Below are positions 12,594 to 17,060 of a DNA stretch of 64,000 nt, piece by piece (position 1 is the stretch's first letter; every line of letters begins with the position of its first letter). The notes beneath the pieces were generated by a model. The model had not been told where the DNA came from and made no database searches. It saw only the letters and a list, made by a program, of their open reading frames with translations. This DNA comes from a bacterium (GTDB lineage: Bacteria > UBA9089 > JASEIO01): the NCBI GenBank assembly GCA_030017475.1, contig JASEIO010000001.1, forward strand, positions 13,495-77,494. Direction: 5' to 3'. A program made the position numbers and the translations under genes.

Positions 12594-15500
12594 ATGTTAC
12601 AGTCAATGTATAGCGGTATTACAGGGATTAAGACCACTCAGGGGTGGATGGATGTTATTGGTAATAATGTTGCTAATGTTCAATCGATTGGATTTAAGAA
12701 GGATAGGGTTACCTTTGAGGATCTGCTGTACCTGAAGATGAAAAATGCCTATGGACCAAGAGGAGGTCGGGGAGGTGAAAATCCAAAACAGGTTGGTACA
12801 GGTGTATCAAATGCAACCATTCAACATATCCATACATTTGGAGCAAAAGAGGAAACTGGTAAACCTACAGATATGTATATAAATGGAGAAGGTTATTTCA
12901 TCCTAAAGGAGGTAGAATGCCACTTAAAGCACTATACAAGGGCAGGTGCCTTTGATTTTGATGGTGAGGGAAACCTGGTTAACCCATCAAACGGATTCTT
13001 TGTTCAAGGTTGGATGGCAGAGTTAAAAGAGAATGGGCAGCTTTGTATTGATCCAAAGACCAGGGAGTCGATAATCGATATTGGGAAGCCTTTACAAAAT
13101 GTAAGACTTCCTAATAAGTTGTTACAACCTATGGCAACAAAAGGGATTGAGTTTTTGGACATATTGAATAAGGACCAAGAACTTCCAATAGACCCAATAA
13201 GGGTTAGGTTTACCTCTCCTGTTAAGTCAACCGAAGAGGTTGTAAAAAGAAACTATGGATTTGATAAAGAGGGTCGTCTTGTTTATGAGGATGAAGATGG
13301 GTTTTGGTGGTATCGAGATGGGGAGATTGCCACAAAGCCAGATGTTATAAGGAATGAATTGGATACAGCTAAACCTTGGGAAGAAGCAGGATTTGAGCGT
13401 GTTCCAACAGGGGAGGTAACGATAAATGGCGCGACCTTCCGTCTTTCAGATTATAGATTGGTGAATGATTTCATCGAGGCTGTAAATCAGTCAAGTAAGG
13501 CAAATGTAACACTATTCTATGATCAGATGTTGGATAAATGGATATTGAAGAATGATATCCTCGGTAGGGAATTACAGATAGAGGAGAATGTTCCTGAGGA
13601 AAGTGGAGTTGGATTTTTTACAGAGTGTAATATCCCCATAGGGACAATAAAGCCACAGGATATCTTGATTCAATTCAAGCATCTATTCGAGCCACAGAAT
13701 CCAGATAATCTATACTTTAGATTCACCCCTGTCAATCCAGATACCTATGATGAGATAACAACTGAGATTCAATCAACAGGAGAGGTGCAGTACGGTCATG
13801 AAATCTTGGATACAAGTAAAAGGATAGGGGATGCCTTTCTTGAGCACGTACCTGATGGGACGATTACCATAAATGATTATACATCCCGTCCCCTTTCAGA
13901 ATATGCATCCTTGGATGCATTGATGACAGAGATCAACAATTCCCCGGATGCTCGGGCAATACTCTCCTATGATCCGGTGAATGATAGATTTACTCTCCGT
14001 AATAAGATTTCAGGAGAGGATTTGAGGATTGCTGAGAAAACGGTCCCACCCCAAATTGGCGCAAGGGTTGAAGGTAGATTCATTGATGAAGTAAATGGAG
14101 AAGGAAAGGTTGATGGGAAGATTAGAGGACATGTTGATGGGAAGATCCAATATGGTTCAGTGATTGGAACAGTGAGGGGCAGGGTGATTGGGATTTCGGA
14201 AGGAGAGATAGAGGGACATGAAGTAGGGAGGGTAGATGGAGAGATTGAAGGTAAAGGTATGTTTTCTGGCTCAACCGTTGTATTCAATGGATTTGTTAAA
14301 GGGGATGTAACTTCTATAAATCTTGGTACACCCGAGGAGCAGGTTGCATATATCGATGGAAAGATCTCTGGTTCTTCGATTGGAATAATGAAAGGAGATT
14401 TTGGAATAATCCCAGAAGACACTGGAAGGGTTTCCCCTCTATATGCCTATACAAATGTATCCTCCTATGATTTTAAGTTGGATGGAGATATAAAAGGTTA
14501 TTTGGTTGCTGATGGAGAGGTTGAGGGATTAGTGCTTGGGAGTTCAGTTGGAGTAGTGGAAGGTCATGTTCAGGGAATGGCTGGTTCTGCAACTGTTGTT
14601 GCTTCGGATTTAGATGGAGATGGAGTCTTTGATGACCTTACCTGGAGGGTTGATAATGAGGCGACCATAACTGGGGATATAGTAGGGACTGCAGTTGGTA
14701 CAATCAATGGGATAATAACCGGAAAGATATGGGATGTAAATGGAAACTATGTTGGTCAGGTTTATGACCAGCGTGTTGATATGTCAGGAGTGGTATCTGG
14801 AAAGATAAGGAATGCCATAGTTATTGGATGTGCAGTTGGGAATATAGAAGGGAAGATCGTTGGAGAGGTTGGTTCAGCGATTACGCATGGTGGGACCTAT
14901 GCATTGATAGAGGGGAAGATCGTTGGAGAGATTGGAGGGATAAAATATGTTGATGTTACAGGTCATGTCTATGATGATGAGATAAATGACCATATATCAG
15001 CCATAGTCTCTGCAACAGGAGGACTTGTTGGGACAGCAGTTGGATATGTTGTAGGGACAGTTGAGGGAGAAGCCCATGGGAAGATAGAGGGTCTTATAAA
15101 ACATGGATATATATGTGCACAAGATATCGATGGGGCTGGGCAGGTTACAGGAAATATCCTATTTGACGGAAAGATAATAGGTTCTATTTCATCTGCCCTT
15201 GATACCTCAGATGATAAGGTATCAAATACGATTGAGTCGATTGCAGGTGGGGGGGCGCAAATAACGGGTACAATAAAGGGTAATGTCCGAGTTATTGACT
15301 CAAGCCATTCCATAACAGGTGTTGCGAAGGGAGAGATAGAGGCGGTTGAAGATGTTCCAACAGACTTAGGAGATCCATACAAAGATGCAGGGTATGCAAT
15401 TGAGGGTAGGATTGTTGGAGAGATCGATGGTTATGGAAGCATAAGGGGAGATTACAAGGGATATGCCACATGTATTGGGAGGGTTGATGGAAAGATAGAT

Positions 15501-17060
15501 GGGGTGATATCGGCTCCATCCGTGGCTGGTATGGCACCTCCACAAGGTGTTGCCAAGTTTGAAGGTGTAGTAGAGGGGACCATTTCTGGTCATATCGTAG
15601 GTTTTGTTGATGCGTATGTTGTTGGGGTTGGAGATGTAAAGGGAGATATGGACATTACTGGTACGTGTATCGGAACAGTCAAAGGGATGGTTGAGAATTT
15701 AGAAGGGCAGATTAGTCCTATAGTCATAGGAAAGGCTGAAGGTATAGCTGAAGGGGCAATAAAAGGGGTGATTGATGCAGAGGAGATGGAAAAACCTGGC
15801 TTTTTCACTCGGATACATATGCCGCTTGGAGAAAAGAGTGCAACCTCTGGCATATTACAATTGGATTCGGATCCAGAATCGCCTACCTATGGGAAGGTTA
15901 TAAACTGCTTCCGTGATCCAGATGCAAATTCTCGTAATCCAGCCCATAGGTTGAATGATGTATTAGACCTTACATCTGAAATCCCGAATGAGGAGCGCTT
16001 TGATTGGATAAATGAGACGGTTGATGGAAAGAATTTCTTCACAGTGAACATGAATGGCAATGATGTTGCGATATTAATCCCAAATGGTGTATTTGGCCCA
16101 GAGCTTATAAGATTTTCTCCTCTTGAGGAAGAATCTGAAGAGGCAGCATCTTTTTCCATAGTTCAAGAGGTTGAGGAGTTTCCTTATCCAATAATAGAGA
16201 GTGATTGGGCTGAAGGTGGTGAGGCTCGCTTAAAGAAGACAGATGAATATATATATTATACATCCAATAATGTCTATGATTCATTAGGGAATGCATTCAA
16301 TCTAACCTTTAATTTTGAGCGAATGGGAACAAACACATGGCTTTGGTATGCCAGGAATCCAGTTGAGAAGGAGCTTGTTTCTGGATATGGTATAGCAAGA
16401 TTTAATTGGGATGGTACATATAATAAGGAGATATCCAATGTATTTCAATCCCCTTCTGATCCGAGAACCTTTGATGGGGATGATGGGGCAATAACAGGAG
16501 AGACTCAGGGAGAGAAAAGGACAATAGGTTACCAAGGTGTGTATATCGATCCACCAGATACCCCTTATCCAAAGGACCAGGCTGGATCGCCACCAGCAGA
16601 ATATGGTGCAGAGGCGATGAGGATGGATCTTGATTTCTCGAAGCTTCTTCAATATGAAGAGCATGAATCTTCGGCCAAGATAGAGCAAGATGGATGGGGG
16701 AAGGGGGTTTTGCAGAACATAAAATTTAATAGGCTCGGAGTTATGATAGGGGAATATTCAAATGACAAGAACATCCCTTTGGCTCGATTAGCCTTGGCTA
16801 CATTCATTAATCCGAGTGGATTGATGAAAGAGGATGGTACTATGTTCTTGGCTTCACCAAATTCAGGAGAGCCAAGTATTGGAACCCCTGGAACTGAAAG
16901 GAGAGGAACTTTAGCCCCTGGGGCATTAGAGAAATCAAATGTTGATATTACAGAAGAGTTTATAAATATGTTGTTGGCTGAACGGGCCTTTCAGGTTTCA
17001 TCTCGGACAATAATGACAGGAGACCGAATATTAATGGAATTGTTGAGATTAAGACCATAA
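12594..17060 (+). CDS. flgE: giant flagellar hook protein FlgE (~1488 aa) with a ~1100-aa central insertion
   Basis: N-terminus MLQSMYSGITGIKTTQGWMDVIGNNVANVQSIGFKKDRVTFED and C-terminus ALEKSNVDITEEFINMLLAERAFQVSSRTIMTGDRILMELLRL are canonical FlgE D0/D1 segments. A D2-like segment YDSLGNAFNLTFNF is near the C-terminus. ATG 12594 follows GAGGGAGG; the ORF track's TTG 12576 is an upstream extension. Confidence 0.9.
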   Translation: MLQSMYSGITGIKTTQGWMDVIGNNVANVQSIGFKKDRVTFEDLLYLKMKNAYGPRGGRGGENPKQVGTGVSNATIQHIHTFGAKEETGKPTDMYINGEGYFILKEVECHLKHYTRAGAFDFDGEGNLVNPSNGFFVQGWMAELKENGQLCIDPKTRESIIDIGKPLQNVRLPNKLLQPMATKGIEFLDILNKDQELPIDPIRVRFTSPVKSTEEVVKRNYGFDKEGRLVYEDEDGFWWYRDGEIATKPDVIRNELDTAKPWEEAGFERVPTGEVTINGATFRLSDYRLVNDFIEAVNQSSKANVTLFYDQMLDKWILKNDILGRELQIEENVPEESGVGFFTECNIPIGTIKPQDILIQFKHLFEPQNPDNLYFRFTPVNPDTYDEITTEIQSTGEVQYGHEILDTSKRIGDAFLEHVPDGTITINDYTSRPLSEYASLDALMTEINNSPDARAILSYDPVNDRFTLRNKISGEDLRIAEKTVPPQIGARVEGRFIDEVNGEGKVDGKIRGHVDGKIQYGSVIGTVRGRVIGISEGEIEGHEVGRVDGEIEGKGMFSGSTVVFNGFVKGDVTSINLGTPEEQVAYIDGKISGSSIGIMKGDFGIIPEDTGRVSPLYAYTNVSSYDFKLDGDIKGYLVADGEVEGLVLGSSVGVVEGHVQGMAGSATVVASDLDGDGVFDDLTWRVDNEATITGDIVGTAVGTINGIITGKIWDVNGNYVGQVYDQRVDMSGVVSGKIRNAIVIGCAVGNIEGKIVGEVGSAITHGGTYALIEGKIVGEIGGIKYVDVTGHVYDDEINDHISAIVSATGGLVGTAVGYVVGTVEGEAHGKIEGLIKHGYICAQDIDGAGQVTGNILFDGKIIGSISSALDTSDDKVSNTIESIAGGGAQITGTIKGNVRVIDSSHSITGVAKGEIEAVEDVPTDLGDPYKDAGYAIEGRIVGEIDGYGSIRGDYKGYATCIGRVDGKIDGVISAPSVAGMAPPQGVAKFEGVVEGTISGHIVGFVDAYVVGVGDVKGDMDITGTCIGTVKGMVENLEGQISPIVIGKAEGIAEGAIKGVIDAEEMEKPGFFTRIHMPLGEKSATSGILQLDSDPESPTYGKVINCFRDPDANSRNPAHRLNDVLDLTSEIPNEERFDWINETVDGKNFFTVNMNGNDVAILIPNGVFGPELIRFSPLEEESEEAASFSIVQEVEEFPYPIIESDWAEGGEARLKKTDEYIYYTSNNVYDSLGNAFNLTFNFERMGTNTWLWYARNPVEKELVSGYGIARFNWDGTYNKEISNVFQSPSDPRTFDGDDGAITGETQGEKRTIGYQGVYIDPPDTPYPKDQAGSPPAEYGAEAMRMDLDFSKLLQYEEHESSAKIEQDGWGKGVLQNIKFNRLGVMIGEYSNDKNIPLARLALATFINPSGLMKEDGTMFLASPNSGEPSIGTPGTERRGTLAPGALEKSNVDITEEFINMLLAERAFQVSSRTIMTGDRILMELLRLRP

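Follow-up and report, generated by a model that had tools for sequence, protein, structure and literature searches.

The closest described systems are hooks whose FlgE subunit carries extra domains within domain D2. In Campylobacter jejuni, domains D3-D4 interrupt D2 immediately behind its first beta strand (strand region Lys169-Leu192) and branch off at Leu192 (PMC5069557). They form outer rings that widen the hook to 280 Å, add inter-subunit contacts and render it more robust (PMC5069557, PMC5097172). C. jejuni has two flgE genes, only one of which builds the hook (PMC5069557). FlgE of Caulobacter crescentus (591 aa) bears a D3 domain inserted in D2 (Ala184-Lys328) and located on the hook surface, and Salmonella hooks remain functional when a 386-aa insert is grafted at the D2 hot-spot (PMC5069557). 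With respect to the filament, giant flagellins of more than 1,000 aa are known from Bermanella marisrubri and Oleibacter marinus, where the structure is visibly thicker; the paper describing them does not mention an enlarged FlgE (PMC6248924). The IN motif has been reported in flagellins and hook-associated proteins in one to five copies (PMC9751261).

Here we analyze a giant flgE located in a stretch of 64 kb of DNA, referred to as the window. The gene occupies positions 12594..17060 on the + strand, including the stop codon, and encodes a product of 1,488 aa (161.5 kDa, pI 4.6). As the preliminary description had pointed out, its length is about 3.5-fold that of a normal hook protein and far beyond the 718-865 aa of the epsilon-proteobacterial ones. 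The ORF list of the window gives an uninterrupted open frame from 12576 to 17060 (+ strand), in which the ATG at 12594 is the start, 5-6 nt downstream of the ribosome-binding site GAGGGAGG. The product is identical letter for letter to MDI6703080.1, entitled "MAG: flagellar hook-basal body complex protein [bacterium]" at NCBI. By our own calculation, the chance of a 1,488-codon open frame is P ~ e^-90 (~42% G+C, ~6% stops per random codon), and thus the frame is not a chance product. We consider it probable that the gene is a functional flgE whose product coats the hook, the window copy being the operon-slot member of a multi-paralogue family.

Both ends of the protein represent the conserved FlgE core. 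The N-terminal half (aa 1-160; 12594..13073, + strand) comprises the D0 helix, Dc (L-stretch) and the first part of D1, as delineated by PF00460, PF22692 and NF004241, and shares 52-66% identity with other giant FlgEs. Here, Flg_bb_rod PF00460 matches weakly at aa 5-35 (15.5 bits vs. a cut-off of 20.7), the FlgE/F/G D1 domain PF22692 matches at aa 96-157 (36.9 vs. 27), and aa 1-153 align with model positions 1-150 of NF004241 FlgE. The first D2 strand or strands follow at aa 161-193 (13074..13172, + strand), delimited by the end of the alignment with the normal-sized relative P0011 at aa 193 and by the TIGR02489 match to aa 1-186. On the far side of the insertion, the rest of D2 (aa 1214-1337; 16233..16604, + strand) includes YDSLGNAFNLTF and is recognized by FlgE_D2 PF07559 at aa 1214-1367 (48.3 bits vs. 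a cut-off of 22.7, E 1.9e-12). This domain is FlgE-specific and tells FlgE from FlgG and FlgF. The C-terminal half (aa 1338-1488; 16605..17057, + strand) contains the second part of D1 and the terminal D0 helix; Flg_bbr_C PF06429 is found at aa 1442-1486 (42.7 bits vs. a cut-off of 23, E 3.9e-11), and PDB FlgE chains match aa 1338-1487. For the N-terminus, the top sequence match in PDB is 5jxl, C. jejuni FlgE. Judged from these alignments, the D0, Dc, D1 and D2 parts are confirmed to be intact. The FlgEFG subfamily model TIGR03506 is matched with 248 bits (cut-off 70), but the cut-off of a full-length FlgE equivalog is missed, the best being NF004241 with 315.8 bits vs. 469: the NCBIfam FlgE equivalogs cover only aa 1-153 and ~1213-1487. 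This alignment of the termini alone accounts for the generic NCBI name.

The gene resides in a complete fla operon with the order flgB...fliK-flgD-flgE-flbD-motAB-fliLMN.... Upstream, fliK (11052..11753, + strand; PF02120 Flg_hook, E 1.5e-10), responsible for hook-length control, is unusually short (233 aa), and flgD (11831..12262, + strand; PF03963, E 8e-21) encodes a hook cap/scaffold protein of 143 aa. Neither protein displays an obvious adaptation to a huge subunit, an observation that counts against a role in the hook. flgD and flgE are separated by an AT-rich spacer of 330 bp (12263..12593) with the ribosome-binding site at its 3' end; it contains no + strand ORF of at least 20 aa and no Rfam family. 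Downstream, flbD (17083..17280, + strand; 65 aa, PF06289, E 2.2e-29) is followed by motA from 17293 onward and then motB. The profile matches, taken together with these neighbors, bear out that a genuine flgE sits at the flgD-flgE-flbD position. Neither a normal-sized flgE nor a flagellin gene was found within the 64-kb window.

The insertion leaves D2 behind its first strand, at ~aa 193. Its size amounts to ~1,020 aa by the Pfam D2 model (aa ~194-1213) and to ~1,045 aa by P0011, the closest normal-sized FlgE (419 aa, 46% identity), which aligns with aa 1-193 and 1239-1488. The large insertion proposed earlier is therefore real, yet slightly smaller than the ~1100 aa given for it. Since its ~110 kDa are nested within D2, the outermost conserved domain, the insertion must be on the outer side of any hook built from this protein, as had been predicted for the extra mass. 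Its parts follow each other in a fixed and conserved order: segment A, an IN module, segment B, a second IN module, a beta region rich in Gly/Val/Ile (584 aa) and segment C. Segments A (aa 194-255; 13173..13358), B (aa 336-404; 13599..13805) and C (aa 1066-1213; 15789..16232), all on the + strand, belong to no known family. Segment A is 34-58% conserved among giant FlgEs and has no Pfam match at E up to 10; segment B is found again in other giant FlgEs and one flagellin; segment C leads back into D2. A profile of the insertion matched none of the PDB chains, including 5jxl and 5az4, at E up to 1.

A gene of this kind might be an artefact, in which flgE ends were joined to unrelated sequence by chimeric assembly of the contig, by gene fusion or by a frameshift. 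The genome is a short-read MAG in which the 95% identical paralogues P0203 and P0008 break contigs. Against this, the frame is uninterrupted over 1,488 codons, no long DNA repeats able to mislead an assembler were found within the gene, its G+C runs smoothly between 0.38 and 0.46, and the alignment with P0011 places both borders of the insert precisely within D2. Furthermore, the order N-core/A/IN/B/IN/Gly/C/D2/C-core recurs in P0007, P0049 and P0205, the last from an independent ENA assembly (locus L033; 1,519 aa, collinear over the full length with 38% identity over 1,581 columns). Such collinear relatives in independent assemblies effectively refute an artefact, which we regard as extremely improbable.

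The IN-like modules 1 (aa 256-335; 13359..13598; LDT..W..AGF..VP.G.VTING..F.L.DY...) and 2 (aa 405-481; 13806..14036; ..PDGTITINDYTS.PLS.Y.SL..L..EINNS...), both on the + strand, were detected by BLASTP and hhalign. Module 1 matches the modules of FliD P0010 with E 6e-18, and a window module matches the IN element of this FliD with E 3e-5. Profile-profile comparison of the FlgE modules (A8) with FliD IN elements (A9, 7/7 of which score above the PF07196 cut-off) yielded 97.4% and E 9.6e-12 over 70 columns, with "TING" and "TIND" of the window modules in register with the central Ile-Asn of the IN motif. The anticipated relation to the IN motif is hence recovered by profile-profile comparison but not by a direct Pfam match: PF07196 gave none at E up to 10, for the modules alone or the whole protein, and is matched by 9/30 instances of the module family. 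Against PDB, the best match of the module profile is Sphingomonas sp. A1 flagellin p5 (E 0.003). AF2 predicts a small beta-beta-alpha-beta-beta domain, with pLDDT 70-89 for module 1 and 60-79 for module 2. Bona fide flagellins and FliDs likewise carry the module. By sequence comparison, both modules are diverged versions of the Flagellin_IN beta-domain present on the surfaces of flagellin and the FliD cap.

The bulk of the insertion is a Gly/Val/Ile-rich all-beta region (aa 482-1065; 14037..15788, + strand; 59.7 kDa) with G-x-hydrophobic-x periodicity. AF2 predicts very long antiparallel beta strands, with pLDDT ranging from 50 to 81 across five models; an earlier model from a shallow alignment was poor. 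A bactofilin or FapA-type beta-solenoid was rejected for this region, which has no sequence or profile similarity to PF04519 or PF03961. Between in-genome paralogues, it is 37-44% identical with gaps of at most 8%, and insert segments are 46-68% identical compared with 55-66% for the core.

The preliminary description regarded the gene as the only flgE in the cluster, which applies to the 64-kb window but not to the contig. The contig, 101,333 bp in length, carries two more giant flgE genes ~20 genes upstream of the window copy, MDI6703059 (partial, at least 802 aa) and MDI6703060 (1,536 aa). Three further ones in the same accession run (MDI6703633, MDI6704453, MDI6704454) probably belong to the same MAG, giving up to six in total. 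Overall, we found at least 15 clusters of giant FlgEs, from 0.9 to at least 1.8 kaa in length (one fragment already measures at least 1,793 aa), with mosaic inserts and, throughout, full polymerisation cores. They are absent from the literature searched and represent an undescribed family of hook paralogues in uncultured bacteria.

With these further paralogues on contig and MAG, the window copy is one of several candidates for building the hook. Another flgE, either a normal-sized one encoded elsewhere or another giant, may form the load-bearing hook, leaving the window protein as a minor, conditional or specialized axial component. It could, for instance, form a distal collar, serve as the alternative hook of a second type of flagellum or represent a surface-variation cassette for certain conditions only. 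The three giants on the window contig among up to six that probably share one MAG, the three giant flgE genes in a single locus of an independent assembly (L028), the precedent of one hook builder among two flgE genes in C. jejuni (PMC5069557), and the existence in nature of a normal-sized relative at 46% identity (P0011) are all in accordance with this explanation. Nevertheless, the window copy holds the canonical flgD-flgE-flbD slot with its own ribosome-binding site, in a window devoid of a normal-sized flgE. Moreover, the post-flgD slot in L028 is likewise taken by a giant (975 aa), giant flgE genes directly follow their own flgD in L028, L031 and L032, with dedicated pairs in the latter two, and every giant retains the full polymerisation core. 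We therefore consider a different role of the window protein unlikely.

More improbable still, the giants could polymerise beyond the length of a hook, into a filament or sheath-like structure that derives from it and serves adhesion or acts as spacer or scaffold; the hook subunit would then have been exapted rather than ornamented. Organization in multi-gene families and the sharing of surface modules with flagellin are traits closer to flagellins than to hooks; some members lie outside flagellar operons, next to Tubulin_2 and HSP70/MreB-like genes (L030) or an ECF sigma factor gene (L033); and the window is without a flagellin gene. In genomes of the Firmicutes or spirochaete type, however, flgK, flgL, fliC and fliD are often encoded elsewhere, and related lineages own ordinary flagellin-fliS-fliD loci bearing the same module. 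In addition, fliK for hook-length control and flgD are placed immediately upstream of the window gene.

For the favored reading, a coated hook, the following assembly is conceivable. With D0 helices, Dc/L-stretch, D1 and D2, the protein retains all parts required for flagellar type III export and for polymerisation under the FlgD cap into the 11-protofilament tube. The insert emerges at the permissive D2 site used by Caulobacter D3 and Campylobacter D3-D4, and the inserts of adjacent subunits would pack together, or interdigitate, so as to form an unbroken coat of acidic protein. Scaling suggests a hook thickness of ~35-39 nm, presuming Salmonella- or Campylobacter-like packing; the hooks of these two genera measure 18 nm and 28 nm, respectively. 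A thick, ornamented or sheath-like hook, as envisaged at the outset, is thus a reasonable expectation from the sequence. As shown for Campylobacter D3-D4, the coat may add inter-subunit contacts, and so stiffen and protect the joint. The hook might consist of one paralogue, or of several that alternate or mix. Against this reading, the joint has to bend at each turn, and a dense coat of 110 kDa per subunit could hinder this bending.

In surface chemistry, the coat would equal the flagellins and caps that carry the modules, and it might be glycosylated by Maf. A Maf-type glycosyltransferase (22047..23879, + strand; PF01973, PF20157) is embedded in the fla operon and is 37% identical (E 6e-135) to a Maf encoded behind a giant flgE in L028; by this association, it may possibly modify the exposed modules. 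Going further, we can envisage, tentatively and with more doubt than belief, an uncultured anaerobe lineage with a self-sheathed flagellum, in which axial subunits supply the coat and the exchange or mixing of several paralogues varies it or divides it into segments. The ~110-kDa hook coat would then combine a new long-strand Gly/Val/Ile beta fold with IN modules, and the modules on flagellin and cap would turn the whole external flagellum into one surface, possibly Maf-glycosylated. If true, this protein sheath would differ mechanistically from membrane sheaths and spirochaete sheath proteins, and it would bear on how a universal joint bends under a thick coat.

Compared with known systems, the giant FlgE has the D0-Dc-D1-D2 core in common with the D3-D4-bearing FlgE of C. 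jejuni (865 aa) and Helicobacter pylori (718 aa), and its insertion site at ~aa 193 matches the D2 site of C. jejuni (Leu192). In contrast, its insert is 2.4 times as long (~1,020-1,045 vs. ~425 aa), unrelated in sequence, composed of IN modules and a Gly-rich beta region, and part of a multi-paralogue family. Assignment to the large epsilon-proteobacterial FlgEs was rejected: TIGR02489 scores 262.9 vs. a cut-off of 412.85 bits on the termini only, and there is no D3/D4 homology. The Caulobacter D3 has almost the same insertion point, but is a 145-aa alpha/beta half-barrel of a single-copy gene without sequence relation to the window insert. Other oversized FlgEs of uncultured bacteria, e.g., L008 (1,005 aa), L018 (711 aa) and L013 (691 aa, Gemmatimonadaceae), also combine conserved termini with a large central insertion, whose sequence has no detectable similarity to the window insert; this comparison shows that D2 has acquired large insertions of differing content on several occasions. 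The giant flagellins of Bermanella and Oleibacter share the several-fold enlargement of an axial subunit in its surface-exposed middle, yet they are filament subunits, expanded by domains added in tandem to the hypervariable region of flagellin. Relative to Flagellin_IN (PF07196), the ~78-aa window modules keep the register of FliD IN elements, including the central Ile-Asn pair; a solved example of this beta-domain is that of Sphingomonas sp. A1 flagellin p5 (PDB 2zbi, 3k8v). Unlike the known IN elements of flagellins and hook-associated proteins, they are located inside the hook subunit proper and bear an extra N-terminal LDT..W..AGF extension.

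The open reading frame of the giant flgE extends from 12576 to 17060 on the + strand, and translation likely starts at the ATG at 12594, with a GAGGGAGG ribosome-binding site 5–6 nt upstream. Its product of 1,488 aa (161.5 kDa, pI 4.6) is identical to MDI6703080.1, which is named 'MAG: flagellar hook-basal body complex protein [bacterium]' at NCBI and is encoded on a 101,333-bp contig. Pfam detects D1 (aa 96–157), FlgE_D2 (aa 1214–1367) and the C-terminal rod/hook helix (aa 1442–1486), with a weak match to the N-terminal rod motif. The alignment to NCBIfam FlgE equivalogs is confined to aa 1–153 and ~1213–1487, and none of their full-length cut-offs is reached; the FlgEFG subfamily model scores 248 bits against a cut-off of 70. 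Solved FlgE and FlgG chains in the PDB likewise match at both ends only. The preliminary description of a flgE of ~1488 aa with FlgE termini, for which a search with N- and C-terminal profiles had been proposed, is borne out by these matches, and the protein has everything that a hook subunit requires to be exported and to polymerise.

P0011 (419 aa, 46% identity), the most similar FlgE of normal size found, aligns to aa 1–193 and 1239–1488 and skips everything in between, and the match to the Pfam D2 model starts again at aa 1214. According to these boundaries, the insert is ~1,020–1,045 aa long and lies within D2, immediately after its first strand. D3 of Caulobacter (Ala184–Lys328) and D3-D4 of C. 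jejuni (Tyr193–Leu618) emerge from the same D2 site, and a 386-aa graft at this site was tolerated in Salmonella FlgE by experiment (PMC5069557). Since it branches from the outermost conserved domain, the insert must face outward. D2 is an insertion hot-spot able to accept a conserved cargo of ~110 kDa.

Six sub-segments of the insert were scanned against Pfam and gave only noise, without any family at E up to 10; no PDB sequence matched the insertion profile at E up to 1. From an alignment of four sequences, AlphaFold modelled the entire insert (1,021 aa) with a mean pLDDT of 36.6, usable only for two IN-like modules and one hairpin. These modules and a Gly/Val/Ile-rich region are accompanied by three segments without a family match, namely A (aa 194–255), B (aa 336–404) and C (aa 1066–1213).

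A gene of this size could be a chimeric assembly, as had been considered from the outset. G+C is smooth along flgE, long DNA repeats are absent within it, and the same order of parts is found in the full-length giants P0007 (1,479 aa), P0049 (1,536 aa) and P0205 (1,519 aa), the last of which comes from an independent ENA assembly and is collinear at 38% identity over the whole length. An artefact is ruled out, and the gene is not hypervariable. A comparison of the individual regions shows the insert to be about as conserved as the core: segments A–C and the IN-like modules share 46–68% identity with P0007 and P0049 and 34–50% with P0205; for the D0/D1/D2 core these values are 55–66% and 44–52%, and for the Gly-rich region 40–44% and 37%, with gaps of at most 8%. 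Such conservation speaks for a structural role maintained by purifying selection and against an antigenic loop that is free to vary.

The two IN-like modules (aa 256–335 and 405–481, ~78 aa each) are similar to each other and have in common the pattern LDT..W..AGF..VP.G.(V/I)TIN(G/D)...L.(D/E)Y..(V/L)..(F/L)(I/M)..(V/I)N.S..A...L.YD...D(K/R)(W/F).L.N. They match repeated modules in P0010 (BLASTP E 6e-18), a bona fide FliD cap protein from a fliC-fliS-fliD-flaG locus. In an alignment of 30 module instances from FlgE, flagellin and FliD, nine match Pfam Flagellin_IN. Compared as profiles, the FlgE modules and canonical FliD IN elements match with 97.4% probability (E 1e-11); all seven of these FliD elements match PF07196 above cut-off. 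The suggested check of the insert for IN modules failed in a direct Pfam scan and succeeded by profile-profile comparison. AlphaFold predicts both modules as small beta-beta-alpha-beta-beta domains (pLDDT 60–89, even with the 4-sequence alignment). Among solved structures, the beta-domain of flagellin p5 from Sphingomonas A1 is nearest to them, with a borderline match (E 0.003); it is the one IN motif with a solved structure (PMC9751261). Flagellin_IN modules are hence common to hook, filament and cap proteins.

The Gly/Val/Ile-rich region (aa 482–1065, 584 aa) consists of 18% Gly and 27% Val/Ile/Leu and has a pI of 4.5. It is strongly periodic, with a period of four residues (autocorrelation of Gly 0.43 at lag 4, 0.23 at lag 8), and contains 50 G-x-hydrophobic-x-G motifs, as against one in the remainder of the protein. 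Such a composition might be taken for low-complexity filler; this reading is ruled out by nine homologues that align with conserved landmarks, e.g., AHGEI.GLIKHA.I.AQ.F.G.G. With these nine homologues, the best AlphaFold model (pLDDT 80.7, pTM 0.63) is nearly all beta with strands of 19–67 residues; the other four models have a pLDDT of 50–68, so the topology is provisional. A solenoid like that of bactofilins or of FapA, which is encoded in the same operon, was rejected by hhalign (0.2%). The region, having no structural relative, is a candidate for a new fold.

How widespread are giant FlgEs? A word-indexed protein search with the insert returned only 4 relatives, and no relative was found when GTDB species genomes and JGI metagenome contigs were scanned for the insertion pattern. 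When 1.84 billion representatives were searched exhaustively by HMMER with the insertion profile, 172 proteins matched at E up to 1e-3, including 30 at E up to 1e-30; they were sorted by their termini into FlgE, flagellin and FliD. The full architecture is found in P0007, P0049, P0059 and further fragments. P0051 (1,161 aa), P0053 (1,199 aa) and P0066 (1,017 aa) are FlgEs with the Gly-rich region alone, and P0068, P0069, P0070 (~1,505–1,519 aa), P0074 (1,052 aa), P0063 (1,019 aa), P0076 (969 aa) and P0088 (911 aa) combine IN modules and segment B with other cargo. Three such IN modules occur in the variable region of the flagellins P0052, P0056, P0061 and P0062, of which P0052 is confirmed by Flagellin_N and Flagellin_C, and many FliD caps are also among the matches. 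P0078 (2,452 aa), P0097 (1,605 aa), P0104 (1,756 aa) and P0138 (1,929 aa) contain up to 10 stretches matching the profile; no FlgE, FliD or flagellin termini were detectable in them with the references used, and they may represent further module-bearing surface proteins. A 1,199-aa FlgE with only the Gly-rich region lies outside a flagellar operon (locus L030, 1671–12083) in ENA sample ERZ27247117, which has three members of the family. The genes before it encode a 296-aa FlgG-like protein and an HTH regulator, and those after it a 976-aa protein of the Tubulin_2 family and an HSP70/MreB-like protein.

Oversized FlgEs were also found at three other loci of uncultured bacteria, namely L008 (1,005 aa, 10001–13018), L018 (711 aa) and L013 (691 aa). 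The ~690-aa insert of the L008 protein has no similarity to that of the giant FlgE; large D2 insertions thus arose repeatedly, and hook enlargement evolved independently.

The preliminary description regarded the gene as the only flgE in the cluster. This holds inside the 64-kb window, which contains no second flgE; two more giants are located on the same 101,333-bp contig, ~20 genes upstream and just outside the window, namely P0049 (MDI6703060.1) and P0203 (MDI6703059.1), which the contig end truncates to an N-terminal part of at least 802 aa. P0008 and P0059 (MDI6704453.1 and MDI6704454.1) share a 7,784-bp contig, and belong probably, as does P0007 (MDI6703633.1), to the same MAG, because their accessions fall in the same run as MDI6703080.1. 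For the same reason P0007 is probably a paralogue and not an independent orthologue. Thus, up to six giant flgE genes appear to reside in one genome, with 43–72% identity to one another. Contig breaks coincide with P0203 and P0008, which share 95% identity. P0059 covers a C-terminal part of at least 1,793 aa, and its beginning is similar to the end of the 802-aa MDI6703059.1, which suggests that some paralogues may reach ~2.4–2.5 kaa. Multi-paralogue gene families of this kind are known for flagellins and hardly for hooks. C. jejuni has two flgE genes and may use just one of them (PMC5069557); here, one or several of the giant paralogues may build the hook.

Outside this MAG, locus L028 (GCA_022729475.1) encodes two tandem giants (1,022 and 1,052 aa), fliK, flgD, a third giant (975 aa) and Maf genes, and loci L031 and L032 each carry a dedicated flgD directly followed by a flgE of 1,519 or 1,537 aa. 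The recurrent pairing with the hook-cap gene flgD supports a hook-type assembly.

In the window, the giant flgE is embedded in a complete fla operon of Firmicutes/spirochaete style, in the order xerC-like, hslV, hslU, flgB, flgC, fliE, fliF, fliG, fliH, fliI, fliJ, SLT lytic transglycosylase, YlxF-like gene, fliK, flgD, flgE, flbD, motA, motB, fliL, fliM, fliN/Y, fliO, Maf glycosyltransferase, fliP, (fliQ), fliR, flhB, flhA, flhF, flhG, fliA and fapA, confirming the reported flgD-flgE-flbD position. No flgG, flgK, flgL, fliC, fliD or che genes were found across the 64 kb. The operon ends at 32650–35168 (+) with a 547-aa FapA (N-domain and beta-solenoid), a small ORF and a DUF2802/DUF6115 protein. 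FliK, the hook-length ruler, has ~400–500 aa in model organisms and only 233 aa here (11052–11753, +); if the ruler model is true, a short and thick hook would be expected. FlgD, with 143 aa, is small too. Between flgD and flgE, the otherwise tightly packed operon opens into a 330-bp AT-rich, ORF-free spacer (12263–12593), which could harbor an internal promoter or regulatory leader for the giant flgE; it has no match in Rfam, and scans for promoters and terminators gave nothing above background.

Downstream of the operon, housekeeping genes are followed by Wood-Ljungdahl genes (53740–60787, +: formate-tetrahydrofolate ligase, RACo corrinoid activator and CO dehydrogenase/acetyl-CoA synthase delta subunit); a strictly anaerobic host with an acetogen-like carbon metabolism is probable. 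The gene between both groups (51532–53733, +) encodes a 733-aa protein in which a STAND/NB-ARC NTPase is joined to a long TPR array. Two tRNA genes (44475–44547 and 44610–44683, +) precede a 255-aa protein (44677–45444, +) consisting of three PASTA domains without a kinase or PBP domain. ClpX shows at most ~71% identity to any named taxon (Thermoanaerobacter, Ca. Desantisbacteria), and the flagellar proteins, compared with 25 named loci, show 55–63% identity to Spirochaetota and Bacillota MAGs alike.

The Maf-type glycosyltransferase gene of the operon (22047–23879, +; PF01973 MptE-like and Maf N-domain) is situated between fliO and fliP. Its product shares 37% identity (E 6e-135) with the Maf encoded directly after the post-flgD giant flgE of L028, where Maf genes occupy 14638–16416 and 17648–19221. 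As this relative follows a giant flgE in an independent assembly, the association of Maf and giant hook recurs. Together with IN modules common to flagellins and caps, the linked Maf suggests a common, possibly glycosylated surface.

The hook is the universal joint of the flagellum, and its mechanics are understood from subunits of 400–865 aa. With 1,488 aa, the giant FlgE is roughly double the largest characterised hook subunit; relatives reach 1,540 aa and one fragment at least 1,793 aa. The ~110-kDa insert would form an outer layer on each of ~100 or more hook subunits. Subunits of 42 kDa in Salmonella and 92 kDa in C. jejuni build hooks of 180 and 280 Å in diameter, respectively (PMC5097172). 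Scaling from both, with packing fractions of 0.44–0.49, predicts that a 161.5-kDa subunit would yield a hook ~35–39 nm across. Deletion of D3-D4 impairs motility in C. jejuni (PMC5097172) and, by analogy, the coat may stiffen and protect the joint through additional contacts. The acidic, long-strand Gly-rich region could lie along the hook lattice or project from it. The giant FlgE would test how much mass on its outside an 11-protofilament lattice tolerates without losing its ability to bend.

Extra outer domains nested in D2 of FlgE are already known from Campylobacter, Helicobacter and Caulobacter, as are giant flagellins (PMC6248924), and the 865-aa FlgE of C. jejuni has been termed 'one of the longest' (PMC5069557). 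In the literature searched, there is no description of a FlgE beyond 865 aa or of a giant or multi-paralogue hook family, and giant FlgE proteins stand unremarked in databases under generic names. Compared with these known systems, the giant FlgE is notable for its size, for IN modules inside a hook protein, for a large beta region without structural relative, and for its paralogue families.
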